This document shows, piece by piece, positions 35,497 to 64,000 of a DNA stretch of 64,000 nt (position 1 is its first letter; each line of letters starts with the position of its first letter). The notes beneath the pieces were generated by a model. It was given only the letters and a program-made list of their open reading frames with translations, was not told the DNA's origin and searched no databases. This DNA comes from Candidatus Obscuribacteraceae bacterium. GTDB taxonomy: Bacteria > Cyanobacteriota > Vampirovibrionia > Obscuribacterales > Obscuribacteraceae. A program made the position numbers and the translations under genes. The stretch lies in NCBI GenBank assembly GCA_044226015.1, contig JBGAHS010000001.1:1322611-1386610 (forward strand), given 5' to 3'.

Positions 35497-35669
35497 TTCG
35501 ATACTCAAACGGTATCGCTCGGATAAGCGACTAGTTCGATACTCAAACGGTATCGCTCGGATAAGCGACTAGTTCGATACTCAAACGGTATCGCTCGGAT
35601 AAGCGACTAGTTCGATACTCAAACGGTATCGCTCGAATAAGCGACTAGTTCGATACTCAAACGGTATCG
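35497..35669 (-). repeat. 38-bp tandem repeat, 4 full copies plus 1 partial
   Basis: TTCGATACTCAAACGGTATCGCTCGGATAAGCGACTAG at 35497, 35535, 35573, 35611 and 35649. It contains the hairpin CGATAC-n7-GTATCG, and the minus strand reads GCGATACCGTTT. Confidence 0.95.
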
Positions 35670-35982: not shown

Positions 35983-36951
35983 TTAGACCGCTGACGGCAC
36001 GAAAACCTTGGAAGGAGAAACATAGCTCTGGATAAGATTTCGATTTGGCGGTTCGGCTGAACAAAATTCAAACCAACAAGATTGATTCCAGTTTTTAGTG
36101 AGCGAATTCCAAAACAAAGCTAAGTACATCTGCACATATTTACGGCTGATTCTCTGCCAAATATTTTTTGTGGTTTGGAAAAATTGTTCTAGGGATGTGC
36201 CGATGGTTTCAATAGATGGTGGAATGCCTTGTGTTTCGCTAAGTTTGTACGATTGACCATTCCTAGACTCGATCAATCCTCTAAACTGTAGGCTCGTCAA
36301 ACCCATCACCAAATCATCAAAGTTAATGCCGATAATTTCGATTAGCTCGTCAAGGGTCTGAAACTCATCTATCTTGAGACACTGAAAAATTGATTGTTCA
36401 AGTTCGCTGAGGGAATTTAAATGATCATTCGATTGGGAATCTTTATGTTCGAGTTTGTTTAATGCAAGTTGTTCTTCTTTTGGATGTGCATTAGCCGGAG
36501 TCTCTGAGCTCCTTCTACAAAAGAGCTCAAGAAACACTGCTGTCGAAACGAGAGGTAACTCTCGCATTCTTTCAGTGATGAAAAGCGCGATTGTCTTGAT
36601 GATGTTTTGCGCTGTCGATAGCGCTGTTCCGAAAATCTTCGCAAACTCATACGCGGAGAAGAGTATTCCTTTTTCTGTGAGCCAGAGTCCTGCAAACCAT
36701 GCTCGAACTAAGCGAACTCTCGCAAAGACTGTATCAGCATATATTCTGCGTTTACGACCACAATTATCACACTCGGAAATTCTAGGATTTTGCGTAACTG
36801 TGTATTTGTCACTTCCACATCTTTCGCAATTTGGTGTTTGGAAAATCAACGATAGTGCTCTGTGACAGGATAATTCATCCGGAAACAATTTGTTGAACTC
36901 CTGCATGTTTCGCTGGAGATCACTTTCTCTTTTTTCCTTCGCCATGATCAC
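35983..36951 (-). CDS. IS1595-family transposase-derived protein (Zn ribbon + HTH + winged helix; DDE core not recognisable)
   Basis: FPDELSC...CERCGS...CDNCGR...DTVF is an IS1595-type zinc ribbon and ISRKYVQMYL resembles the IS1595 C-terminal motif. The middle (LSELEQSIFQCL...TLDELIE...LTSLQFRGLIE) resembles a DprA-type winged helix. Confidence 0.65.
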   Translation of the reverse strand: MIMAKEKRESDLQRNMQEFNKLFPDELSCHRALSLIFQTPNCERCGSDKYTVTQNPRISECDNCGRKRRIYADTVFARVRLVRAWFAGLWLTEKGILFSAYEFAKIFGTALSTAQNIIKTIALFITERMRELPLVSTAVFLELFCRRSSETPANAHPKEEQLALNKLEHKDSQSNDHLNSLSELEQSIFQCLKIDEFQTLDELIEIIGINFDDLVMGLTSLQFRGLIESRNGQSYKLSETQGIPPSIETIGTSLEQFFQTTKNIWQRISRKYVQMYLALFWNSLTKNWNQSCWFEFCSAEPPNRNLIQSYVSPSKVFVPSAV

Positions 36952-37475: not shown

Positions 37476-38018
37476 TTCCCTCTCGGAATCTGCGTTTGCC
37501 AAGAAAAGATTGAGCTGGGTCGGGGGCTCGTCTACATGATTCGCCAAAACCAATTCTAAATAAGTTTGCAAATCACCATGCTTTCGGATATGCAAAACAT
37601 CAATCCCGGATTCAGATGCAAATTTGGAAATTAAGAGATGGCGATGGCAGCCGCTAGGATCCTCCTCTCCGCACATCACGGCAACTCTGAATGATTTAAT
37701 ACCTTTCTGCAACCGTTCCATGCCACCGAGAAACTTACTCGATGCCGCGAGTTTTGCGTAATCCACGAATCCCTCGGAATCGTAAAACTCGTTTTCTTTC
37801 GGTTTACCGCCTATCTCATGACCAAGAAATACGTACTTGAAGTTCCTTTTTTTTAACTCTTGTTTCAAAAACTCACCTGTGAAGTGCGTTGCATAGCGCG
37901 AGTAAGGATTGCTCCTTACGTCTGCTACCACTTCTATTGAGTGCATAGCTAGTAGCTCGATGAATTTGTCCATCGAATAGTTTGAGTGCCCGATAGTATA
38001 GAGTCGAAGTGTGCTCAC
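37413..38018 (-). CDS. DUF488 family protein
   Basis: LYTIGHSN, DVRSNPYSR, MCGEEDPSGCHRHLL. Confidence 0.9.
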   Translation of the reverse strand: MSTLRLYTIGHSNYSMDKFIELLAMHSIEVVADVRSNPYSRYATHFTGEFLKQELKKRNFKYVFLGHEIGGKPKENEFYDSEGFVDYAKLAASSKFLGGMERLQKGIKSFRVAVMCGEEDPSGCHRHLLISKFASESGIDVLHIRKHGDLQTYLELVLANHVDEPPTQLNLFLANADSERETSAEKSQAQWRSQAKIRESE

Positions 38019-38052
38019 GCTTTAACTAATCGAAAGCTTGTGAAAGTTCCAG

Positions 38053-39840
38053 CTATTCGGCAACCAGTTGATATATGCGGTCGAGTGCAGCGTCAACGTC
38101 AGCCGGCAACTGCACTCTTAATAGGCGCCTTTTTCGCGAGCTCAGTGCTTTGAAGTCACCGAGCGCTTGAGCTTCTTTCAGGACTGCGAAACTAAATTTC
38201 TCTCCCGGAATTTCAACGTCTTGTTTTTCTTCGCTTGTGATTTGCAAGAAGACGCCGCTGTTTGGTCCACCTTTGTGCAACTGCCCCGTTGAGTGTAAAA
38301 ACCTTGGTCCAAAACCAACAGTTGTGGCGACTTTGTATTTCTGCATTACAAAGTCGCGAATCCTTTGGAGTTTAGCCTCCAGTCTGGGGCAGCACTCAAT
38401 GTATGCATTTATAGCAAAGTAGTTGCCAGGGCTTAACTGTGAGAGGTGTGCTTGAAACAATGCTCTCATCGTTTCCTTACTTCCAACTTTTGCCTTAAGT
38501 TGCTTGATGTTATCGTCGTCGGCAAACAACTCGAATCCACTTTCAATAACGAGCAATTTGTTTTCTGGAAGATACCCTTCTTCTTCGTATTCAGCGAGTA
38601 TCTCTTTGGTGAAATCTTTGCTCTCTTGCACATTTGGCTGATTGAAAGCGTTAATTCCGATAATTGAGCCGCCGGTTGCAGTTGCAATTTCCCAACGCAA
38701 GAATTCGGCTCCCAGGTGAGCCAGATCGCTCATTTCAATACGAACCACTGGTTGCCCGGCTGCCTCTAGAGCTGCGATCCGCGCATCTTGATCGGGACAG
38801 GTTTTCGTTGAAAGTCGCACATAAACAAACAATCGATCAGAACCATAGTCAGATGGTTCGCTTAGCGTTTCCGCTGCAATCGGTATAATTCCTTTGCCGT
38901 CTTTGCCAGTGCTCTCTGCAATGAGCTGTTCAAGCCAGGTGCCAAGGCTGTGCACCGCAGGTGATGTCACTAATGTGACTTTATCTCTACTTCCTCTGGT
39001 TAGGACACCAAGGATTGTACCAAGCAACACGCCTGGATTGTCTCCCGGAGATACTTCTGCACCACACATCTTTTGCATGCTGTGGGCATGTTCTAGAATC
39101 TCTTTGACGTTAAGTCCCATTACTGTCGCTGGAACCATACCGAAGTTTGATAGAGCTGAGAATCGACCGCCAATACTTGGTCGTCCGTAAAAGGTGTGAG
39201 CAAACTTCAAATCCTTTGCTTTCTTCTCCATCGAAGAGCCAGGATCAGTGATAGCTAAGAAATGTTCTCCTGCTTTGTCACCAACGATTTTTTTTGTTTC
39301 GTCATAGAAGTATTGGCACAGAACGTTAGGTTCTGTCGTGCTTCCAGATTTGCTCGCCACGATGAAAAATGTTTTGCCTGGATCAATCTGGTTTCGGATA
39401 CTGAGCACCTGTGCGGGCACTACTGAGTCAAGAACCAACATTTCGGGATGACCAGCTATGTTCCCGAATGTTTGTCGCATAACTTCTACACAGAGGCTGC
39501 TTCCACCCATTCCCAGCAAGACAGCATGCTTGTAATTCTTAGACTTGATCTCGCTGCTGAGTGCGTCAAGTTTGCCGAGGTGCTCAAGTTGTTCATCAAC
39601 AATGTCGAGCCAGCCTAGCCAGTCGCCCTCATCTTTGTTGCTCCACAAGCTAGCATCTTTTGACCAGAGACGTTTGGGAAAATCTTTGCTGGTAAGAGCG
39701 GCGAGTTCAGCTTTTAATGCTTCTTCGAATTTTCCTAGCGAATGGCTGGTTGCACCGGTTTTGACATTCTGCGCCACACTGCTATCGGCGTTTCCCATTT
39801 CCTTATCCCCTTGTGAAGCTATCAGACTCGATGATGCCAA
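38053..39840 (-). CDS. pgi: Glucose-6-phosphate isomerase (type related to the PGI part of transaldolase-PGI fusions)
   Basis: GMGGSSL, SKSGSTTE, IGGRFSALS, EQLIAESTGK, FNQPNVQESK, GPRFLHSTGQLHKGGP. The start may be the ATG at 39798. Confidence 0.88.
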   Translation of the reverse strand: MASSSLIASQGDKEMGNADSSVAQNVKTGATSHSLGKFEEALKAELAALTSKDFPKRLWSKDASLWSNKDEGDWLGWLDIVDEQLEHLGKLDALSSEIKSKNYKHAVLLGMGGSSLCVEVMRQTFGNIAGHPEMLVLDSVVPAQVLSIRNQIDPGKTFFIVASKSGSTTEPNVLCQYFYDETKKIVGDKAGEHFLAITDPGSSMEKKAKDLKFAHTFYGRPSIGGRFSALSNFGMVPATVMGLNVKEILEHAHSMQKMCGAEVSPGDNPGVLLGTILGVLTRGSRDKVTLVTSPAVHSLGTWLEQLIAESTGKDGKGIIPIAAETLSEPSDYGSDRLFVYVRLSTKTCPDQDARIAALEAAGQPVVRIEMSDLAHLGAEFLRWEIATATGGSIIGINAFNQPNVQESKDFTKEILAEYEEEGYLPENKLLVIESGFELFADDDNIKQLKAKVGSKETMRALFQAHLSQLSPGNYFAINAYIECCPRLEAKLQRIRDFVMQKYKVATTVGFGPRFLHSTGQLHKGGPNSGVFLQITSEEKQDVEIPGEKFSFAVLKEAQALGDFKALSSRKRRLLRVQLPADVDAALDRIYQLVAE

Positions 39841-39982
39841 GACTATTATTTCCCGGCTGTCAGCATACCGGGCGAGGCAATCCTAATGCGCTAAGTATAT
39901 CTAAATATGTCCCGAGAATTGAGACTCTTTAAGAGTACTTTCCTCACAAAAAGCTGTAATTCTGATGTCAGCAAGTGAGTTC

Positions 39983-39991
39983 TGCTACACT
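39983..39991 (+). promoter_or_regulatory. Extended -10 promoter of ylqD
   Basis: TG-C-TACACT upstream of the GGGAGG RBS (40021) and the ATG at 40033. Confidence 0.45.
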
Positions 39992-40032
39992 ATGCCAGAC
40001 ATTTGCGCATAGAGTCGATTGGGAGGTTCTAG

Positions 40033-40470
40033 ATGGTTGAGACTATTCAACTAACTCGCCAGGTTCAGGTTAAAGCTATTGTCACTGAAAATTTCAAGGG
40101 GCAGGTCGCCGCTGAAATCAATCGCAACCTGCAACAAATCGATGCAGAGCTTCAACAGTTGGAATTCAAAGGCAAGAGAGCTATCTCTGATATCGAAAAG
40201 AGAAGTCCCAGTCCTATGCCCCCCGAAGTGAAAGCTCAGGTTGAAACGATCAGGCAGCAGGTCGAAGCTGAGAAGCTCCGCTTAATGCAGCTGAAAGAAG
40301 AAATGACAGCTCAGAGCAACGCGCTTAACGAATTGCCTATTGGAAGTGTTGTTACTCAATTCACAGTCGAAAACCAGGTAGATGTCAGAATCGGGGAGAA
40401 CATATTTCAACGCCTTGAGGGCGGTGAGATTCTCGTTAAAGACGGCATAATTCAAGAGATTCGTATCTAG
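40033..40470 (+). CDS. ylqD: YlqD family protein
   Basis: IQLTRQVQVKAIVTE, a coiled coil, and the C-terminal EILVKDGIIQEIR. Strong RBS. Confidence 0.88.
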   Translation: MVETIQLTRQVQVKAIVTENFKGQVAAEINRNLQQIDAELQQLEFKGKRAISDIEKRSPSPMPPEVKAQVETIRQQVEAEKLRLMQLKEEMTAQSNALNELPIGSVVTQFTVENQVDVRIGENIFQRLEGGEILVKDGIIQEIRI

Positions 40471-40481
40471 GTAACTCGATT

Positions 40482-40507
40482 ATCGCGACTCCATCGCGAT
40501 TATTATT
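40482..40507. terminator. Hairpin between convergent ORFs
   Basis: ATCGCGA-ctcca-TCGCGAT with AT-rich flanks, just after the ylqD stop. Confidence 0.45.
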
Positions 40508-40511
40508 AACC

Positions 40512-40706
40512 TCAGCAAGAGGTCCGAAGATTGGGAAGTGCTCCTTGATCCTCTAGCGACAGCATTTGCGAGGATGCTTCGCGCGGACCCTCGGTTTGAG
40601 CTGGCTTGTTAAGGGCTTGCAATTCAAGGTTTTTCCAAATCTGAGTAGCCCAGCTAGACTGAGAGTCATCAGTCTTATCAATCGAATTTCCAGGTTTGTC
40701 GGTCAT
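40512..40706 (-). CDS. Small hypothetical protein (64 aa)
   Basis: ATG at 40706 with a GAGGA RBS upstream; sequence MTDKPGNSID...QGALPNLRTSC. Confidence 0.4.
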   Translation of the reverse strand: MTDKPGNSIDKTDDSQSSWATQIWKNLELQALNKPAQTEGPREASSQMLSLEDQGALPNLRTSC

Positions 40707-40837
40707 AGTAACGGGTCCTCGCTTGATTTCGCCCAATCAATGCGATCCTCATTCACTTATCGCATCAAAGAGGAATGACATTTTTGTAACATTTTTACAC
40801 CTTGAAATTTCGAAGGTCAAAATCAAATGCCGAGTAG

Positions 40838-41049
40838 CAATTGGAAAATCGAAACGCAAACGGTAGCGATTGGAAAATTGAAACGCAAACGGTAGCGATT
40901 GGAAAATCGAAACGCAAACGGTATCGATTGGAAAATCGAAACGCAAACGGTATCGATTGGAAAATCGAAACGCATCGATTGGAAAATCGAAACGTAAACG
41001 GTAGCGATTGGAAAATCGAAACACAAACGGTGTCGATCGGAAAATCGAA
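40838..41049 (-). repeat. 29-bp tandem repeat, about 7 copies
   Basis: AAACGGTA(G/T)CGATTGGAAAATCGAAACGC units. The minus strand reads ATCGATACCGTTT. Confidence 0.95.
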
Positions 41050-41213
41050 GCCAACAAGTTCCGTTCAGAATTTGAATAGCGTTATCTCAAAGCGATAGCA
41101 TTTCGTCAATTTATAATTGCGATATTGGGATATTCGCTTCCTCTACCTTTAGATCAATGGATTATTCGCGGAACCATGTATTGATTCACCGGGAATTTAA
41201 TACAGCCGTCACT

Positions 41214-42032
41214 TTAGGAGGCGAGCTTGAAACCTGCTACTTGTTTCAGATAGTCTCGCAATGAGGCAATCCAGAATTGGAGCTGAGCTGTTGTAACATC
41301 GAAACCGTCGGTGGCTTCCAACTTTGCAAGGCATTCGTAAAGCTGGCGCGACGATTCCAGTGAACGAACCGACAACTCTTCGATTGTAGCGATGTGTTGC
41401 TCTGATCTTCCGGTCGAAAGGGTTATGAGTTTGTTTTGTGCACGGCTAAGACCCATGATGAAAAGCCCGCGCTTCCATGGCTCGCAATTATTCAACACCA
41501 CTCGGATCATGAACTTCTCTGGAACGCCTGCTGCAGGCATCTGGTCCATATCTTCTTGGATTTCGACTACCTTTTTTCTCTTTGTCTTGAACTGTGCTCC
41601 CCATGCTGCTGGTTTCAAATCCTCTGAGGTAATTTGTGACTCAACCAATTGCGAGCCGAATAATCTGCAGGCTATGCATGTGTGTTTCTCAACTGCTTTG
41701 ACTAACCCTTCGTTGTCTTCGCCATAACGTATCAATAAATCTTGGAGATAAGTGCCACCATCATTTTTTGGTTCGCCAAGCCTAATGCAAGCCTTATCGC
41801 GATTGAAACTGTCGCACACATACCCAGGTCCTAGTGTTTCTTTCAACAACGACTCCACTTGCCTGCGCAAAAAAGTCTTGAAATTAGATCCAGAGATGTA
41901 AGGCATACCTGAGAGGTCTTTTAAAGTATAGAGGTCTGGGGAATTTCGCCTTCCGTCTCCGGATTGTTCGAGACGAGCACCATTTTTACATTTGATGAAA
42001 CCTGTGAGAACCACGCGGGATTGAAAACTCAT
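41214..42032 (-). CDS. Solo, diverged CRISPR type III Cas7-group RAMP protein (Csx7/Csm3-like)
   Basis: FQSRVVLTG, PDLYTLKDLSGMPYISGSNFKTFLRRQVESLL (compare D.PV.RD..G.PYIPGSS.KG.LR), Zn-type C..C and CIACRLFGS, and NCEPWKRGLFIMGL. The Gly-rich loop is degraded to LSTGRSEQH. Confidence 0.8.
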   Translation of the reverse strand: MSFQSRVVLTGFIKCKNGARLEQSGDGRRNSPDLYTLKDLSGMPYISGSNFKTFLRRQVESLLKETLGPGYVCDSFNRDKACIRLGEPKNDGGTYLQDLLIRYGEDNEGLVKAVEKHTCIACRLFGSQLVESQITSEDLKPAAWGAQFKTKRKKVVEIQEDMDQMPAAGVPEKFMIRVVLNNCEPWKRGLFIMGLSRAQNKLITLSTGRSEQHIATIEELSVRSLESSRQLYECLAKLEATDGFDVTTAQLQFWIASLRDYLKQVAGFKLAS

Positions 42033-42075
42033 TGTGGTGCTACCTCGCTAATACGAACTGTTGGGGGCAAGATAT

Positions 42076-42152
42076 GGCACCTGACGACACTGCTGCGTAA
42101 GCAGAACGCCGAGCTAAGTAGCTGGCGGTATCAAATATGGTGCCCTTACGGG
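42076..42152 (-). promoter_or_regulatory. Candidate structured RNA leader of the Cas7-like gene
   Basis: The minus strand folds by eye into nested stems GGCACC/GGUGCC, GAUAC/GUGUC, CGCC-AGCU/AGCU-C-GGCG and CUGC/GCAG. Confidence 0.45.
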
Positions 42153-42400
42153 TTTCTCTCAAACTTTATTGCGTAACAGTATACACAGTTAATCTATAAC
42201 AGGATCGTCGTTACCAAAAATCGCGGGTTAAAAATAGTTCTTGTCAACTTCGTGCTTACGGAATACTGCATGCTGCCCCGTTCGGGCGGGGTCTGGTTAT
42301 CTAACTTGCCCGCTGATAGATGACGCCAACTGTTTGCAGGATTACCGGTAGACATTCGACGATGCATTTCTTTTGCTTGCAACACGAGCTGTTTCTGGGG

Positions 42401-42840
42401 GTCGGGACGGCAAGCGAGATCCGCCAATGGGTGGCGTGAGGACAGTAAGCCAGATCTGGCAGCTGGAGCCAGGCGGCAGGGCTTCAATCAGATCTGGCAG
42501 CTGGAGCCAGGCGGCAGGGCTTCAATCCAGATCTGCCAGCCGGAGCCAGGAGTGAGGACAGTAAGCCAGATCTGCCAGCCGGAGCCAGGAGTGAGGACAG
42601 TAAGCCAGATCTGCCAGCCGGAGCCGGGAGTCAGGACGGCAAGCGAGATCCGCCAATGGGTGGCGTGAGGACCGTAAGCCAGATCTGCCAGCCGGAGCCG
42701 GGAGTCAGGACGGCAAGCGAGATCCGCCAATGGGTGGCGTGAGGACCGTAAGCCAGAGCTTGCAGCTGGAGCCAGGAGTCAGGGCTGCAAGCCAGATCTG
42801 GCAAGCTGGAGCCAGGCGGTAGGACGCTAACCGCAAGCCA
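42401..42840. repeat. Mosaic GC-rich tandem array of 35- and 38/39-bp units (11 units)
   Basis: AGATC anchors at 42417, 42452, 42490, 42529, 42568, 42607, 42646, 42681, 42720, 42755 (variant) and 42794. Confidence 0.9.
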
Positions 42841-43033
42841 AGTTCATCATAGATGTTCGGAATCCAAGTTCGCGAGCAATGGTGACGAGCCGGTTTTTGT
42901 GCCGGCCCCGCGAGAAAATCTCGCCGGACGCCTAGGTGTCGGACCATTAGGTGTCGGACCATGGTTCTCTTTATCTCGCACGGCATTTGCACGGCAGTTT
43001 CTATATCGTCGATTTGTTGGGCGAGGAAAATCG

Positions 43034-43588
43034 ATGGATAGATTCACGTTTAAGGCAGAACCGGAGTCGAGTAAGACTCATAACAATCCTGGAGATGTTT
43101 GGCTTTCTGAGTTACTCCAGCATAGCGAATTGAGGTCAGTTCCCATAAAACCACGAATTTCTGATTTGCCACCACAGCACGCGGAAAAGTCTGATGAAAA
43201 AAAGATTGAAGAAGTCGCCACCACTTTAGCTTCGCAGCTCACAGCAAAAGTGTCCACGATGAAGGATTGTACGAGCAATCGGTGTGAACCGACCCATTTG
43301 AACATGTTCAATCCGAAGGCTCTACCGCACGGTATCGTTGGTGTTCAGCTTGACTTCGAACTCGAAAGAGGCGGAAAAAATGGACGGACAATTGACGAAA
43401 CTATGTTAGTTGGAAATGAGTCCAATAAGCCGCAAGAAGATCTGAATCGCACTCTAAACCAGCTAGTTAGCTCCGGTGCCGAGGACGGTCAATTTAGGCT
43501 AAAGCTTGAAGCCAAAGACTCTGCTTTAGGCTCTTTTCGGGAAATGGAGGGAACTGTTCACGTGCATCTTTTGCGTGGCTTGAACTGA
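43034..43588 (+). CDS. Hypothetical protein
   Basis: ATG at 43034 with a GAGG RBS lies inside the 42899..43588 ORF. No family recognised. Confidence 0.6.
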   Translation: MDRFTFKAEPESSKTHNNPGDVWLSELLQHSELRSVPIKPRISDLPPQHAEKSDEKKIEEVATTLASQLTAKVSTMKDCTSNRCEPTHLNMFNPKALPHGIVGVQLDFELERGGKNGRTIDETMLVGNESNKPQEDLNRTLNQLVSSGAEDGQFRLKLEAKDSALGSFREMEGTVHVHLLRGLN

Positions 43589-43792
43589 GCTTATCTGTCA
43601 TGTGTGCTTGTAACATCTCTTTCTCCGTCACTTGCGTGGCTTAGCTCATTCTTTTGGCGTTCGCCAGGCAGGACCAGTGGACCTGCTCGTTGTGCAGTTT
43701 CGTTAGAAGGCGCGACTCTGCAGTTGCTTAATTGAGTCACGTGGGAAGTCGCATCTAGTTGACTGGAAGGTGCTTCTGATCCGTTTGACTGG

Positions 43793-44100
43793 CGTGAGGC
43801 TGTCTCATCCGCCACGGATGCGTGGGGCTGACTCCTCCGTTATGGATGCGTGCTGCTGCTTCATCTGACATGGATGCGTGGGGCTGTCTCATCGTCCATG
43901 GATGCGTGGGGCTGTCTCATCCGCCGGATGCGTGGGGCTGTCTCATCCGCCATGGATGCGTGGGGCTGTCTCATCCGCCACGGATGCGTGGGGCTGTCTC
44001 ATCTGACATGGATGCGTGGGGCTGACTCCTCCGACATGGATGCGTGCTGCTGCTTCATCTGACATGGATGCGTGGGGCTGTCTCATCGGCCACGGAAGCG
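43793..44100. repeat. 28-bp palindromic (REP-like) tandem repeat, about 11 copies
   Basis: GGATGCGTGGGGCTGTCTCATCCGCCAT units (GGATGCG at 43816, 43844, 43872, 43900, 43926, 43954 ... 44066) form CATCC-n5-GGATG hairpins. The array lies between convergent genes. Confidence 0.92.
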
Positions 44101-44168
44101 CCTTGCCCGTCGGGAAGGTGAGCCAACGTAATCATGTCGGATGAAAAAGCCCCACATGCGTGGACTGT

Positions 44169-45014
44169 TCATTCGTCGTGACTTGCGTGTGTACTCCAGA
44201 GTTCACCGCCTGGGCGGTTGACCTGGTTGATCCAGTCTCCGAATTTTCCACCAGATTTCCAGATGAGTTTTGGTGGTCCACTCTTCGTCAATGAATAAAC
44301 GGTGTACATGTGATAGTTCGAGTCGTTCAATTTTTCGTGTATAAATGCGATTTCCTGTTTGCCATCGTGATCTACATCGGCAGCTGAAACTGTATCCAGC
44401 TTTTGTCCGGTTTTGGGATCGACGACAGTGACATATTCCATCGGCGGAGTGTATTCGGTCAATACGACTCTTCCGTTCTTTAACCATTGCATGGCGGCTA
44501 TCCATCGTCCGTAAATTTTACCCATGCGAAGAACGTAGCCGCCAACTTTGTGATTTTTCCACTCCAAGCTGTTCAAGAATCCTTTATCCATTGAGCTAGG
44601 CGGCAGATGTGATGTCCACGACTTTACTGTATCGGCCTTGTTTGCACTGTCCCCTTTTGTATTGTCACTCACAACTCCGTGCTTAACTTTGTTTGCACTC
44701 TCTGCTCTATCAGCGACGTCATCACCGTCGTTCTTATTCGCATTATTGCTCTTGGGGATGTCGCCCTTACTTGTTGTGGCAGGAGCCGCCGCTAGCATGA
44801 GACCCACCGTATCTTTAGCGGTCTTTCTAATTCCGATGGAGTCGGAGCTTTCGTTGTAGGCAGTTTCTTTTCCATAAAAGTTTGCAGAATCGGCTTTGCG
44901 ATTCGAAACACAATCACACATGGTTGGTGCTGCTAAAACACGAGAAAAGGTAGTCGGCGCCAAAACGAAGAACACCGAGCAAAATATGCAGCTGATTTGC
45001 GTGGTTCGGTCCAT
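44169..45014 (-). CDS. Secreted hypothetical protein with an FG-GAP/DxDxDG-like Ca-binding motif
   Basis: Signal-peptide-like N-terminus and AADVDHDGKQEIAF. Confidence 0.7.
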   Translation of the reverse strand: MDRTTQISCIFCSVFFVLAPTTFSRVLAAPTMCDCVSNRKADSANFYGKETAYNESSDSIGIRKTAKDTVGLMLAAAPATTSKGDIPKSNNANKNDGDDVADRAESANKVKHGVVSDNTKGDSANKADTVKSWTSHLPPSSMDKGFLNSLEWKNHKVGGYVLRMGKIYGRWIAAMQWLKNGRVVLTEYTPPMEYVTVVDPKTGQKLDTVSAADVDHDGKQEIAFIHEKLNDSNYHMYTVYSLTKSGPPKLIWKSGGKFGDWINQVNRPGGELWSTHASHDE

Positions 45015-45273
45015 AAATCCATTTTTCCACTGAGTGCCTTGATTGTGCTCAGGGTTATCACCGTAATTGCATTAAATTAAATTTCCATCACGAAGTCCTG
45101 ATGATAATAATTACACTTTTAGACCTTTTCATCGTCGCATCAAAAAGACAAAGCTCTCGAAACCTTTGTTATTGTTGTCGTTGCTTAGGACACCCCAGTA
45201 TCCAAGATGAACTGCGTTCAATGATTTTTGATTCGCATCTAATAGATCATGGGTCTGTCAACGGAGACAGGCA

Positions 45274-46758
45274 GTGCTATTCAATAGTTTTACCTACTTA
45301 CTTTTCTTACCACTTGTGGCGTTGGTCTATTGGACGGCTCCGCAACGAGCGAGACATCTCATCCTCCTGCTAGCGAGCTATTTCTTCTACATGAGCTGGA
45401 TGAAGATCTACGGCTTGCTTCTGTTCGGATTGACTGCAATCAATTATTTGCTTGGAATTTCTCTGGCAAGCTCGAAGTCGCATTCATCTCGCCGATTGAT
45501 TTTTATCGCTGGATTGAGTGCAAATTTGGGCTGTTTGGCGCTTTTCAAATATACCAATTTCTTCATTGACTCGGTCCGGCAAATTAATGCCGCGCTTGCG
45601 CATGCCTTTGGTGTGCCTATTGTCGCTGATCTAGCCAGTCTGCCTGATCTACCCATCATTCTTCCACTGGGGATCTCATTCTTTGTTTTTGAATTCATCC
45701 ACTATCTAGCAGATGTGTTCAAGGGCGAGAAGCCTATGAAGTCGCCTGTCAGATTTGCACTGTTCGCGGCATTCTTTCCTTCGCAAATTGCTGGTCCCAT
45801 CAAGCGTTTTGAAGATTTCGAAAACCAGCTCACTGCGTCAGCACAATTTTCGAAACAACTGTTTCAATCTGGACTTCTGCTGATTTTGCAGGGACTCTTT
45901 AAGAAGGTCGTACTGGGCGATAATCTTGCTCCGCTAGTGCAGGCAGGTTTTTCTGCCCCGCAAAATATGGGCACCTTCGATGCCTGGATTTGCGTTTTTG
46001 CCTTTGCTTTGCAAATCTACTACGATTTCTCTGGTTACACCGACATCGGTCGTGGATCGGCTATGGTACTCGGTTTTACGCTTCCCGAAAACTTCAATAT
46101 GCCTTACGTGGCGAAGAGTCTAAAAGAGTTCTGGCATCGCTGGCACATCAGTCTGTCCACATGGCTTCGCGATTATCTTTTTATTCCCATGGGCGGCTCA
46201 CGCAACGGCAAGGTCGCTGCCGCGCGGAACCTAATAGTGACCATGCTCTTGGGTGGTCTCTGGCACGGAGCATCATGGCATTACGTAGCCTGGGGTGGCT
46301 TCCATGGCAGTGGGCTTGCGGTAAACAGAGTTTTGGATACATTAATTGAGAAATCGCCTGCGCTCAGCCGCGCTTCACAGACCTGGTGGTGGAACCTATC
46401 TGCGCAATTGTCAACATTTTTGCTCGTTTGTATTGGCTGGGTTGTTTTCCGCGCAAGTGACATGAATGAGGCAATGGGTGTATACCAATCGATGTTCACG
46501 ATGCGCCCATCGACTGGACCAGAAGCAACAATTGCCGAGCTTTTTCTGCAGTCGAGTTTGCCAGTAGCACTGATACTATATGTGGTGACATACACGCTGA
46601 CAAAGTACTTCCCAACTTGGGGGCTTCATTTGCCAGAATCTCTGCGCAATCTTCGCTTTCCAATTTATGCCAGAGCGATCGCGGTTGCCGGATTCGCTCT
46701 TGTTGTTGTTGGCTTAGCACCACAACGCTCCATTCCGTTTATTTATTTCCAATTTTAA
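45274..46758 (+). CDS. MBOAT family O-acyltransferase (AlgI/PatA/DltB-like)
   Basis: MLFNS, LPLGISFFVF, AGPIKR, QIYYDFSGYTDI, EFWHRWHISLSTWLRDYL, GLWHGA and the terminal FIYFQF. Confidence 0.95.
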   Translation: MLFNSFTYLLFLPLVALVYWTAPQRARHLILLLASYFFYMSWMKIYGLLLFGLTAINYLLGISLASSKSHSSRRLIFIAGLSANLGCLALFKYTNFFIDSVRQINAALAHAFGVPIVADLASLPDLPIILPLGISFFVFEFIHYLADVFKGEKPMKSPVRFALFAAFFPSQIAGPIKRFEDFENQLTASAQFSKQLFQSGLLLILQGLFKKVVLGDNLAPLVQAGFSAPQNMGTFDAWICVFAFALQIYYDFSGYTDIGRGSAMVLGFTLPENFNMPYVAKSLKEFWHRWHISLSTWLRDYLFIPMGGSRNGKVAAARNLIVTMLLGGLWHGASWHYVAWGGFHGSGLAVNRVLDTLIEKSPALSRASQTWWWNLSAQLSTFLLVCIGWVVFRASDMNEAMGVYQSMFTMRPSTGPEATIAELFLQSSLPVALILYVVTYTLTKYFPTWGLHLPESLRNLRFPIYARAIAVAGFALVVVGLAPQRSIPFIYFQF

Positions 46759-48446: not shown

Positions 48447-48703
48447 TTAGATCGATACCGGTTGAAAATCGAGTTTGAAGCGAGGCGCTTGCCAATCGAA
48501 AATTAGATCGATACCGGTTGAAAATCGAGTTTGAAGCGAGGCGCTTGCCAATCGAAAATTAGATCGATACCGGTTGGAAATCGAGTTTGAAGGGAGGCGC
48601 TTGCCAATCGAAAATTAGATCGATACCGGTTGGAAATCGAGTTTGAAGGGAGGCGCTTGCCAATCGAAAATTAGATCGATACCGGTTGGAAATCGAGTTT
48701 GAA
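48447..48703 (+). repeat. 56-bp tandem repeat, 4 full copies plus 1 partial
   Basis: ATCGATACCGGTT at 48451, 48507, 48563, 48619 and 48675. Confidence 0.95.
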
Positions 48704-51117: not shown

Positions 51118-51200
51118 AATGACCCGCAGGAAAAGGAAATATTATAAAGCATTCTATTTGTCATTGAATCGGCGAGGGACGGATCTCTTTGCATCGACGC

Positions 51201-51737
51201 GATCACCCAACCGGTATCGATTGAAAATTTGAATGACCTGGCAGCGAGAAAATCATAAAGTGGAATGCGTAAGATTTTCCCGGATTAGGTTGTAAGAGAA
51301 ACGATCACACAACCGGTATCGATTGAAAATTTGAATGACCTGGCAGCGAGAAAAACATAAAGTGGAATGCGTAAGATTTTCCCGGATTAGGTTGTAAGAG
51401 AAGCGATCACCCAACCGGTATCGATTGAAAGTTTGAATGACCAGGCAGCGAGAAAATCATAAAGTGGAATGCGTAAGATTTTCCCGGATTAGGTTGTAAG
51501 AGAAACGATCACACAACCGGTATCGATTGAAAATTTGAATTACCTGGCAGCGAGAAAATCATAAGTGGAATGCGTAAGATTTTCGCGGATTAGGTTGTAA
51601 GAGAAGAGATCACCCAACCGGTATCGATTGAAAGTTTGAATGACCAGGCAGCGAGAAAATCATAAAGTGGAATGCGTAAGATTTTCGCGGATTAGGTTGT
51701 AAGAGAAGCGATCACCCAACCGGTATCGATTGAAAAT
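51201..51737 (-). repeat. 102-bp tandem repeat, 5 full copies plus 1 partial
   Basis: GATCAC(C/A)CAACCGGTATCGATTGAAA... at 51201, 51303, 51405, 51507, 51608 and 51710. The minus strand reads ATCGATACCGGTT. Confidence 0.95.
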
Positions 51738-51949: not shown

Positions 51950-52939
51950 TTACTCTTCGAGATAATCGCGCAGCTTTTCAGTGTGATCCGATGTTCGCAG
52001 TTGGCGTAGCGCCTTCAGCTCAATTTGGCGAGTGCGCTCTCTTGTGATTCCTACAAGTTTTCCAACCTGTTCAAGAGTTCTTTGATTACCATCTTTCAAA
52101 CCAAATCGAAGGATGATGATTTCTCGCTCTCTTGCAGTAAGCATTGAAAGAACGCCTCTGATATCCAGCGCCAAGAGAGCTGATGCAGTTGACTCTTCTG
52201 GTGGAGTTGACAGTTCATCCTGCACAACATCGGAAAGACTGTTGTCTTCTTCCTCACCAAGCGGAGAATCCAACGACATCGGTGTTCTGTTTGCCGCCAG
52301 CACTTCTTTAATCTTGGTGATACTGCATTTCATTGCTTTTGCAAGATCTTCCATTGTGGGTCGGCGACCAAGCTCTTGCGAAAGCTGACGCGTCGTCTTA
52401 CGCAAATTGTTAATCGTCTCGACCATATGCACTGGCACGCGAATAGTTCGAGACTTATCCGCAAGGGCTCTTGTGATACCCTGACGAATCCACCATGTCG
52501 CATAAGTGGAGAATTTGTATCCGCGTTCAGGGTCAAATTTCTCTGCCGCTCTGATGAGCCCCAGGTTTCCTTCTTGAATCAAATCAAGAAAAGGAAGACC
52601 TCTATTCTGGTATTTTTTTGCAACGCTAACTACCAGTCTAAGGTTCGCCTGCACCAGTCTTTTTTTTGCTAGCTGATCACCCTTGCAGATGCGTCTTGCT
52701 AGCTCAATTTCCTCTTTTGCAGACAGGAGTTTTACTCTTCCAATATCGCGAAGGTAAACCTGCACAGAATCTTCAGAGCGGGAGCGCCCTGTTACATCAA
52801 TGTCGGGCTCGCTATCGTCGCTATTTTCGTTATCACTGAAGAGATCTGGGTTGTCATAACCGGACTGAGCAAAGTCCAGTGTGAAATCATCCAACGTGAT
52901 ATCTTCGATTGTTTGTGTATTGTATCTTGCCATTTTCAT
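51950..52939 (-). CDS. RpoD/SigA-family sigma-70 factor (probably group 2)
   Basis: [57 protein letters not shown]...TRERTRQIE. Confidence 0.95.
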
Positions 52940-52940
52940 T

Positions 52941-53036
52941 AGCGGTCCAAGTCCGCTGTTTGTTGGTGTATACGATATTTCCGTGAAGTAGTCCGCGCAT
53001 TGGACTACGCCACCACAGGAGTGGAGGCGCGGAAAT
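52941..53036 (-). promoter_or_regulatory. Candidate structured 5' leader of the sigma factor gene
   Basis: Three-way junction at 52977-53036, plus an AGCGG-n7-CCGCU hairpin next to the start codon. Confidence 0.5.
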
Positions 53037-53199
53037 TTTTCAGGTACTCGGTTTAGTTGACGACTCTACTATTAAAATGTTCCAACACCAATGTTGGAAT
53101 GACGTTAACCCTAGATCTTTTTGTCGTAAGTACTCGGTATTCTTTTGTTAGTAATTCACGGCTTTGCTGCGAAGCTTCTTACGCCAAAGATTCTCAGGT

Positions 53200-59159: not shown

Positions 59160-59538
59160 GTTGGGTAATCGGAACTGGATCGATACCGGTTGGAAATCGA
59201 ATTTGGATCGATACCGGTTGGGTAATCGAATTTGGATCGATACCGGTTGGATGATCGGAACTGGATCGATATGGGTTGGGTAATCGAATCTGGATCGATA
59301 CCGGTTGGGTAATCGAATCTGGATCGATACCGGTTGGGTAATCGAATCTGGATCGATACCGGTTGGATGATCGAATCAGGATCGATACCGGTTGGATGCT
59401 CGAATTTGGATCGATACCGGTTGGATAATCGGAACTGAATCGATACCGGTTAGGTAATCGAATCAGGATCGATACCGGTTGGATGATCGGAACTGGATCG
59501 ATACCGGTTGGATGATCGGAACTGGATCGATACCGGTG
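59160..59538 (+). repeat. 28/29-bp tandem repeat x13
   Basis: GGATCGATACCGGTTGG(G/A)T(A/G)ATCG(A/G)A... with cores at 59177, 59205, 59234 ... 59524. Confidence 0.95.
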
Positions 59539-63808: not shown

Positions 63809-63874
63809 GCTGACACCTGGACTCATATTCTTGAAAGGTTCGAATTTTGTTCGAACCGTTTTTGGGTCGAAATA

Positions 63875-64000
63875 GGATCGATACCGGTTGGAAACCGAAA
63901 TTGGATCGATACCGGTTGGAAACCGAAATTGGATCGATACCGGTTGGAAACCGAAATTGGATCGATACCGGTTGGAAACCGAAATTGGATCGATACCGGT
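63875..64000 (+). repeat. 28-bp perfect tandem repeat, at least 5 copies, truncated by the window end
   Basis: GGATCGATACCGGTTGGAAACCGAAATT at 63875, 63903, 63931, 63959 and 63987. Confidence 0.95.

Follow-up and report, generated by a model that had tools for sequence, protein, structure and literature searches.

The window (the whole 64,000-nt stretch of Candidatus Obscuribacteraceae DNA analysed here) contains an orphan gene of apparent CRISPR origin, whose product P0001 resembles Csx7, the backbone subunit of type III-D complexes. Since the gene is intact, conserved and located at one fixed site, has lost its guide-gripping parts and persists where no other CRISPR genes are found, it was likely recruited as a cellular RNA-binding protein. 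We assign a probability of about one half to the reading that P0001 is a domesticated, guide-free host RNA-binding protein, fixed as a lone gene in one clade of Obscuribacterales. The original prediction had described an intact frame of 272 aa with a number of quoted motifs, and all of them are present on the minus strand.

41214..42032, minus strand: orphan Csx7-derived Cas7 gene encoding P0001 (272 aa), intact ORF

P0001 matches the Csx7 profile TIGR02581 with E 1e-14 and 54.6 bits, half of the curated cut-off of 108.05 bits, and the best-scoring orphan (87.3 bits) also falls below this cut-off. The PADLOC Csm3 profile is matched as well (E 3e-14), the Pfam RAMPs profile weakly and below the cut-off (E 0.003), and one orthologue is labelled plain Csm3 in the public record. 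The main AlphaFold2 model, based on an alignment of 122 sequences with canonical Csx7 included, has pLDDT 89.6 and pTM 0.86, with low confidence at the thumb and at the C-terminal end. The best Foldseek matches of this model are type III Cas7 chains (8bmw_H, E 2.5e-9). In the VIA structure comparison it aligns with 8bmw_I (type III-D Cas7) over 202 residues (Z 14.7, rmsd 4.1), and the top 29 rows are CRISPR proteins without exception. A weaker model based on the orphans only (27 close orthologues, pLDDT 67.6) yields the same best match with E 3e-4, and the ESM Atlas yields RAMP/Csx7 clusters only. Thus, profile and structure searches, suggested earlier as a check, do find a RAMP fold, and P0001 is predicted to have the RRM-based Cas7 fold, belonging to the Cas7 group of the RAMP superfamily.

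Residue counts given below refer to 30 full-length orthologues, and motif counts to 33 orphan rows compared with 65 canonical rows. The fragment P0028 is left out of all counts, and the fragments P0022 and P0027, as well as P0029 (equal to G061), are left out of the 30-row counts. The following elements of the Cas7 core are kept.

41934-41936, minus strand: D33 of SPDL, at the position of the Csm3 catalytic Asp, acidic in 30/30 orthologues (28 Asp, 2 Glu)
41862..41891, minus strand: helix alpha1 motif GSNFKTFLRR, with S49, K52 and R56 kept
41667..41816, minus strand: predicted Zn site C73, C82, C119, C122, each cysteine present in 30/30 orthologues

In the profile alignment D33 falls on the Asp of Thermococcus Csm3 (GIDNP in 6iqw and 6muu) that is replaced by Ala in the PDB entries of the dead protein (GIANP in 6mur and 6o7h), and the loop preceding position 33 is highly variable among the orthologues. 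In helix alpha1, R56 is found in all 30 orthologues, S49 in 29, and K52 in 29, the remaining one having Arg. These three residues, mapped from S. epidermidis Csm3 to P0001 by the shared position of the GSxxKxxLR motif, and the acidic residue in position 33 are retained at rates equal to those of canonical Csx7. According to the accessible part of PMC10289348, most contacts of Csm3 with crRNA are made via alpha1 (S49, K52, R56), and the thumb intercalates into the duplex. G126 and D138 are also invariant (30/30), and P141, R177, C183 and Q199 are newly invariant in the orphans.

The guide-gripping loops are shortened or replaced.

41526-41582, minus strand: eroded thumb, reading KRKKVVEIQEDMDQMPAAG, a hypervariable basic-then-acidic linker with low model confidence
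41391-41420, minus strand: LSTGRSEQHI in place of the Gly-rich loop, the canonical motif being found in 0/33 orphan rows versus 55/65 canonical rows

The distance between D138 and F174, spanning the thumb, has a median of 33 aa in the orphans versus 43 aa in canonical Csx7. The loose thumb pattern (R.GV.IDR ... YD.EVVP) is found in 2/33 orphan rows versus 53/65 canonical ones, and the YD.E pattern in none of the 33 versus 47/65, while the helix and the strand flanking the replaced Gly-rich loop are kept in the model. The catalytic-site Asp, the four Zn-type cysteines, the shortened thumb and the altered Gly-rich loop had all been pointed out in the original prediction, and all are seen in P0001. 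Two more losses had not been noticed there. The N-terminal IG.G loop is found in 3/33 orphan rows versus 41/65 canonical ones, and Gly53, the invariant Gly of GSSxKG in alpha1, is kept in 1/30 orphans versus 65/65 canonical proteins, being replaced by Asn, Thr or Arg. In the accessible part of the VIPR study (10.64898/2026.04.26.720920) three features of crRNA-binding RAMP proteins are named, the RRM, the G-loop and the thumb. Hence, with the RRM kept and the thumb and G-loop lost, one of three RNA-binding features is left in P0001, and the two dropped ones are specific for guide presentation. The G-loop is eroded in type I Cas7 too, as stated in the available portion of PMC3150331.

The assembly containing the window (G000; 8.19 Mb, 13 contigs) is 92.2% complete, so that absence of genes from it, and of arrays least of all, is not provable. 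P0001 is the sole RAMP match in this assembly. There were no matches in it to Cas1, Cas2, Cas6 or type I Cas7 (PF05107), and 21 Csm, Cmr, Csx and Cas10 queries from relatives retrieved nothing outside P0001, which was matched by Csx7 and by one Csm3 (E 0.036). The repeat scan of the assembly yielded tandem repeats only, with near-identical or irregular "spacers", and no CRISPR array. The claim that no cas genes or array are recognisable in the 64 kb thus extends, by these searches, to the whole 92.2%-complete assembly, where the genome-wide search found no type III locus besides P0001.

Two candidates from these searches were rejected. A match to the Cas10 palm profile (C3, E 8e-6) was taken as a cyclase-like protein and not as Cas10, this profile having weak matches in 46/107 genomes; the matched gene lies among non-cas genes and is not hit by real Cas10 queries. 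The tandem repeats flanking the orphan (29 nt and 39/74 nt) were considered as a degenerate CRISPR or a guide, but unique spacers are missing from them; repeats of a similar kind are scattered over the window and the genome, and none of the flanking ones aligns in orthologous loci.

In the survey of the order 11/107 genomes have a match, and 96/107 have none. The orphan is found in 8/8 genomes of the window's genus and in 2/2 genomes of a second genus (36-37% identity), the eleventh match, in G022, being a canonical Csx7 encoded in a cas10-csx10-small gene-csx7-cas7 operon. In all ten carriers the orphan is a single-copy gene with a stop-free open frame, and the genes marking its site are as follows.

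38053..39840, minus strand: transaldolase/phosphoglucose isomerase-like gene (tal-pgi), located a few kb from the orphan in 10/10 carriers
40033..40470, plus strand: ylqD, the convergent neighbour on one side of the insertion site, near the orphan in 9/10 carriers
51953..53065, minus strand: sigma-70 gene (open frame) delimiting the ancestral site opposite to ylqD, upstream of the orphan in 8/10 carriers

In the window other genes, spanning about 10 kb, lie between the sigma-70 gene and the orphan, and in G059 ylqD, the orphan and the sigma-70 gene follow each other in unbroken succession. In the non-carriers ylqD directly meets the sigma-70 gene in 8/11 loci with a called ylqD ORF, and the same is observed in G022; tblastn found no trace of the orphan in any of the 18 non-carrier loci fetched around ylqD. 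Neither cas genes nor their fragments were found beside the orphan in the 10 carrier loci or on one further metagenome contig, and no partner gene is co-conserved with it across the 10 carrier loci. The carriers form one clade both in the five-marker tree (8 carriers versus 18 other genomes, SH-aLRT 100; the carriers G060 and G063 were left out, having too few columns) and in the tal-pgi tree (10 versus 3).

In the profile search of 1.84 billion representatives, only four orphan-type clusters outrank G022 Csx7. A sample of 400 other genomes of the phylum yielded 26 weak matches (E 1e-20 or worse), the best 11 of which are canonical Csx7 in operons; as seen in these controls, a second Cas7 adjoins csx7 in G022 and in 11/11 cyanobacterial loci. 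The class sample contained no orphan, and no relative of it was found in viral contigs with two patterns. This distribution points to a single insertion that took place before the two genera diverged and was then inherited vertically.

Several features were observed in the same neighbourhood. An unannotated 64-aa ORF (40512-40706, minus strand) lies between the orphan and ylqD, on the same strand as the orphan; it is conserved in G065 (52%) and G063 (44%), has no Pfam match, and was not found by tblastn in 26 other loci. The ylqD gene, whose family is known from Firmicutes, is present in 99/107 genomes of the order, and in the majority of the loci examined (L100-L117) its neighbours are ccsA/resB and a sigma-70 gene of group-2-like type. 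A low-GC gene encoding 322 aa (35983-36951, minus strand) has weak matches to the IS1595 zinc ribbon and the DprA winged helix and no counterpart in orthologous loci, and is probably a transposase-derived insertion.

In the careful tree of 36 rows the orphans are monophyletic (100/100), with a stem of 0.73, and sister to G022 Csx7 (100/98). The quick tree of 99 rows has the same sister grouping with support 99, and among the 1.84 billion representatives G022 Csx7 is the non-orphan nearest to the orphans. Grouping of the orphans with the carriers' own long-branched Csm3 is not rejected by the AU test (p 0.29), and thus the tree alone leaves the donor unfixed; the Csx7 donor rests on full-length collinearity. 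Indeed, G022 Csx7 and P0001 are collinear from end to end (31% identity, E 2e-34), including the Zn insertion and the C-terminal helix, and Csm3 has no tblastn match to P0001.

Most pairs are saturated for the dN/dS analysis, and the only usable ratio comes from one unsaturated pair with true starts (G059/G062), being 0.028 for the orphan and 0.037 for tal-pgi. In 21 pairs within the genus, mean pN and pS are 0.21 and 0.80 for the orphan, compared to 0.20 and 0.77 for tal-pgi, with pN of 0.29 for DUF488. The orphan is under purifying selection and is conserved like tal-pgi. Orthologue synteny and dN/dS had been named in the original prediction as the means to recognise a neutrally evolving copy from cas operons, and the orphans are never found in such operons. 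We infer that the common ancestor of the two genera captured the gene once from a III-D operon, and that the gene then passed through a burst of remodelling, seen as the long stem, before it was stabilised.

Conserved motifs were found in the non-coding DNA 110-240 nt upstream of the orphan.

42179..42194, minus strand: motif A GATTAACTGTGTATAC, putatively promoter-like, 160-185 nt before the start in 6/10 carriers
42128..42143, minus strand: motif B GCACC-R-N4-TG-R-TAC, an imperfect palindrome, in 7/10 carriers
42228..42246, minus strand: motif C, TGTCAAG...ATTTAA-like, in 7/10 carriers

The spacing of these motifs to the start is constant whatever gene lies upstream, and they are conserved though synonymous sites are saturated; motif A is absent from all non-carrier loci examined. 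Taken together, motifs A-C suggest a dedicated promoter for the orphan. In the one RNA run found, which contained 0.07 of the words, ylqD of a relative is covered, and the orphan gene lies outside the coverage.

Two other interpretations of the motifs were discarded. Motif A contains a DnaA-box-like 9-mer, but a replication origin is not supported here, as dnaA lies on another contig at the GC-skew sign change and there is no skew flip at this locus. Motif B has sigma-54-like spacing, but no RpoN match was found in the genome. Of its 263 matches 29 are intergenic, compared to 12% of the genome being intergenic, and because of this lack of enrichment no regulon was drawn. The form GCACC-R-N4-TGATACC recurs in intergenic DNA of G000 (e.g. 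C1:698349, C8:725554, C11:817143), one intergenic copy of motif B being upstream of what we take to be a lexA-like gene.

Other type III genes are present in 7/10 carriers, including III-D operons in two of them, III-B genes in one, and a syntenic III-A operon cas10*-csm2-csm3-csm4-csm5-cas6 in 6/10.

L118-L123 (G064, G059, G063, G060, G062, G068), e.g. L118:6088-11878: III-A operons, syntenic and array-less

No array was found beside these operons within the fetched 11-20 kb, and Cas1 was not found in 4/6 genomes with the operon. Their Cas10 proteins lack GGDD in 6/6 cases and HD in 5/6 (the five of the genus), and their Csm3 keeps the Asp, the thumb and the G-loop. The operon adjoins a gluconokinase-like gene, with a pair of Ser/Thr kinase genes on the other side in the genus's five genomes, and this site is empty within the contig in G000 and G065. 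An intact version of the III-A locus with an array and cas1 is found in G021. In G062 the III-A repeat of G021 occurs once, as a partial copy (93% over 27 nt; L159:1501-1527, minus strand), and some 60 nt away lies what we take to resemble a tRNA end; the copy is possibly a solitary repeat serving the array-less III-A operon. No RAMP besides the orphan was found in G000 (92% complete), G061 (91%) and G069 (66%). Csx7 above the cut-off is present only in G022, and no carrier has a Csx7-type parent operon. As the orphan is present in 10/10 carriers and the III-A module in 6/10, the value of the orphan is independent of this module.

If P0001 acts as a guide-free RNA-binding protein, single-stranded cellular RNA would be bound along alpha1 and the RRM palm (S49, K52, R56, FGS, D138), with the protein being a Zn-stabilised monomer or small oligomer. 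As there is neither a thumb to flip every sixth base nor a G-loop, threading of crRNA and its presentation for base pairing would not take place, and the protein, lacking the Cas11 arginine, would show little cleavage or none. D33/E33 may then be retained as a metal or RNA contact, while P141, R177, C183 and Q199 would form an altered binding surface; the likely role of P0001 would be to protect one particular host RNA or to control it post-transcriptionally. The accessible part of PMC5965380 describes RNA binding by type I-D Cas7 as governed by the palm and not by the thumb, and against this stands its report that Csm3 and type I-A Cas7 with a mutated thumb bind crRNA less tightly. Moreover, alpha1, FGS and the cysteines may be kept for fold stability alone, replacement of the alpha1 Gly by Asn, Thr or Arg may block the RNA path, other type III operons are held by 7/10 carriers, and no co-conserved RNA or partner gene has been found.

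A broader interpretation, which we hold tentatively and at somewhat less than even odds, is that a CRISPR backbone subunit has been fully domesticated as a core gene. It would have shed guide threading, keeping the RRM face, the Zn site and the acidic residue, and, expressed from a conserved promoter of its own, would regulate or process a specific host RNA. The origin of RAMP proteins would here be reversed, a CRISPR effector having turned into a plain cellular RRM protein, and as the clade also keeps a disarmed, array-less III-A operon, it would have repeatedly turned type III parts into housekeeping machinery.

P0001 could also be a stand-alone metal-dependent endoribonuclease, with D33 processing or degrading host RNA without a guide. 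Position 33, aligned with the Csm3 catalytic Asp, is acidic in 30/30 orthologues although the preceding loop is variable, and D138 is invariant, which is consistent with such an activity. However, as described in the accessible parts of PMC11026444 and PMC10289348, the catalytic Asp lies between the scissile phosphate and the thumb, and works, together with an Arg from another subunit, where the thumb has kinked the backbone. Because cleavage in type III complexes needs both, RNase activity is less to be expected here than RNA binding. Given that the thumb is lost, that the Csm2 search of G000 gave no match, and that Glu replaces Asp in 2/30 orthologues, we consider this explanation unlikely.

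Rather improbable is the loss of RNA binding altogether, with P0001 being a Zn-stabilised regulator that binds proteins or DNA. It would fit the loss of three guide-gripping loops and the alpha1 Gly and the appearance of new invariant residues, but S49, K52, R56 and the acidic residue in position 33 are kept at canonical Csx7 rates, and no partner gene is co-conserved.

The original prediction had offered two possibilities, exaptation to a non-CRISPR role and trans-acting modulation of a type III complex encoded elsewhere. The former has gained support from the single copy, synteny, vertical inheritance, purifying selection and retention without another RAMP. In the latter case P0001 would restrict filament growth or autoimmunity, being a thumbless cap or a dominant-negative subunit. 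Type III operons are indeed present elsewhere in 7/10 carriers, six of these being the syntenic array-less III-A, and the accessible part of 10.1101/2023.06.24.545427 describes inhibitors derived from Cas proteins that form defective complexes. Still, the orphan is intact in the 3/10 carriers without another RAMP (G000, G061, G069), the III-A site is empty in G000 and G065, none of the carriers has the parent operon of Csx7 type, and the orphan is chromosomal and not on a mobile element, with no relative in viral contigs. These observations weaken trans action, and we regard it as quite improbable.

Very improbable, in our view, is an RNA-guided system similar to VIPR, in which P0001 would be the sole protein and the effector, and the guide an unrecognised RNA of non-CRISPR type. 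Stand-alone RAMP proteins with guides of their own do exist, as reported in the accessible part of 10.64898/2026.04.26.720920, and the conserved non-coding motifs upstream of the orphan might be viewed in this light. According to the same source, however, Vipr has both the thumb and the G-loop, which are lost in P0001. No GGY-NN array was found (none of at least 6 units in the genome, none of at least 5 units in nine carrier loci), positions 38000-46000 have no Rfam match, the region downstream of the orphan is not conserved as RNA, and the flanking tandem repeats resemble others across the window.

Finally, although hallmark motifs are eroded and scores fall below family cut-offs, decay of a remnant of a lost type III-D operon has a negligible probability and is refuted by the selection data, since the frame is stop-free in 10/10 genomes, dN/dS is 0.028, the protein is conserved like tal-pgi at saturated synonymous sites, and no other cas fragment adjoins the orphan.

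To return to the guide-free RNA-binding protein, its closest relative among known systems is Csx7 (TIGR02581; the III-D backbone subunit of PDB 8bmw, intact in G022 together with cas10, csx10 and a second Cas7). P0001 is similar to it in the fold, collinearity, four cysteines, S, K and R of alpha1, the acidic catalytic position and the C-terminal helix, and probably descends from it, judging by the sister grouping and the collinearity. If functional, P0001 would work in the manner of the Cas7 RRM palm. On the other hand, it has no thumb motif, Gly-rich loop, IG.G loop or alpha1 Gly, scores below the cut-off, and is encoded by a lone gene in a housekeeping region of a genome where no cas partners or array were found; the Csx7 operon setting (cas10, csx10, another Cas7, array) is observed in 0/10 carriers. 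Therefore, with the thumb, G-loop, operon and cut-off all lacking, P0001 is not Csx7 in the sense of a functional III-D subunit.

The orphan is not VIPR, HRAMP/ARAMP, or a Cas-derived anti-CRISPR, as far as the accessible parts of the respective sources describe them. HRAMP and ARAMP (PMC8730458) are likewise lineage-restricted, array-less and RAMP-derived, but they are multi-gene modules of Cas5, Cas7 and nucleases with predicted defence function, whereas the orphan is a lone gene in 10/10 loci, has a traceable donor and is conserved like housekeeping genes. Vipr (10.64898/2026.04.26.720920) is also a single RAMP protein outside CRISPR loci, but it is about 20 kDa, mostly viral and early-branching, keeps the thumb and the G-loop, and uses GGY-NN guide RNAs, while the orphan is nested within Csx7, is chromosomal and has neither the thumb nor the G-loop, and the search for GGY-NN arrays was negative. 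Cas-derived anti-CRISPRs (10.1101/2023.06.24.545427) are altered stand-alone cas genes as well, but they belong to anti-defence clusters of mobile elements and target a cognate system, whereas the orphan is a vertically inherited core gene at a fixed housekeeping site, kept even where no type III system was found. The literature searched, which included few subscription journals, yielded no description of the orphan family or of a lone Cas7 core gene, and no passage on a solo Cas7 was found in the accessible part of PMC12669027.

Non-defence CRISPR derivatives described so far are multi-gene modules or keep the guide RNA. For the orphan, an intact donor can be traced within the same bacterial family, the insertion site is dated and controlled by its empty counterparts, and the residues lost or kept can be cleanly listed. 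Together with G022 Csx7, 31% identical to it, it constitutes a natural experiment on the shares of the thumb, G-loop and alpha1 in RNA binding, polymerisation and cleavage, and on the route from defence protein to core gene. Moreover, the orphan points to an unknown RNA regulation in Obscuribacterales, an uncultured sister group of cyanobacteria.

Apart from the orphan, intergenic tandem repeats with the palindromic core CGGTACCG, or ATCGATACCG-like, occur in the window (35497-35669, 40834-41049, 48447-48703, 51199-51737, 59160-59537, 63868-64000) and throughout the genome. Of the CGGTACCG sites, 137/298 are intergenic, compared to 12% of the genome, and they constitute a dispersed family of REP-like elements.
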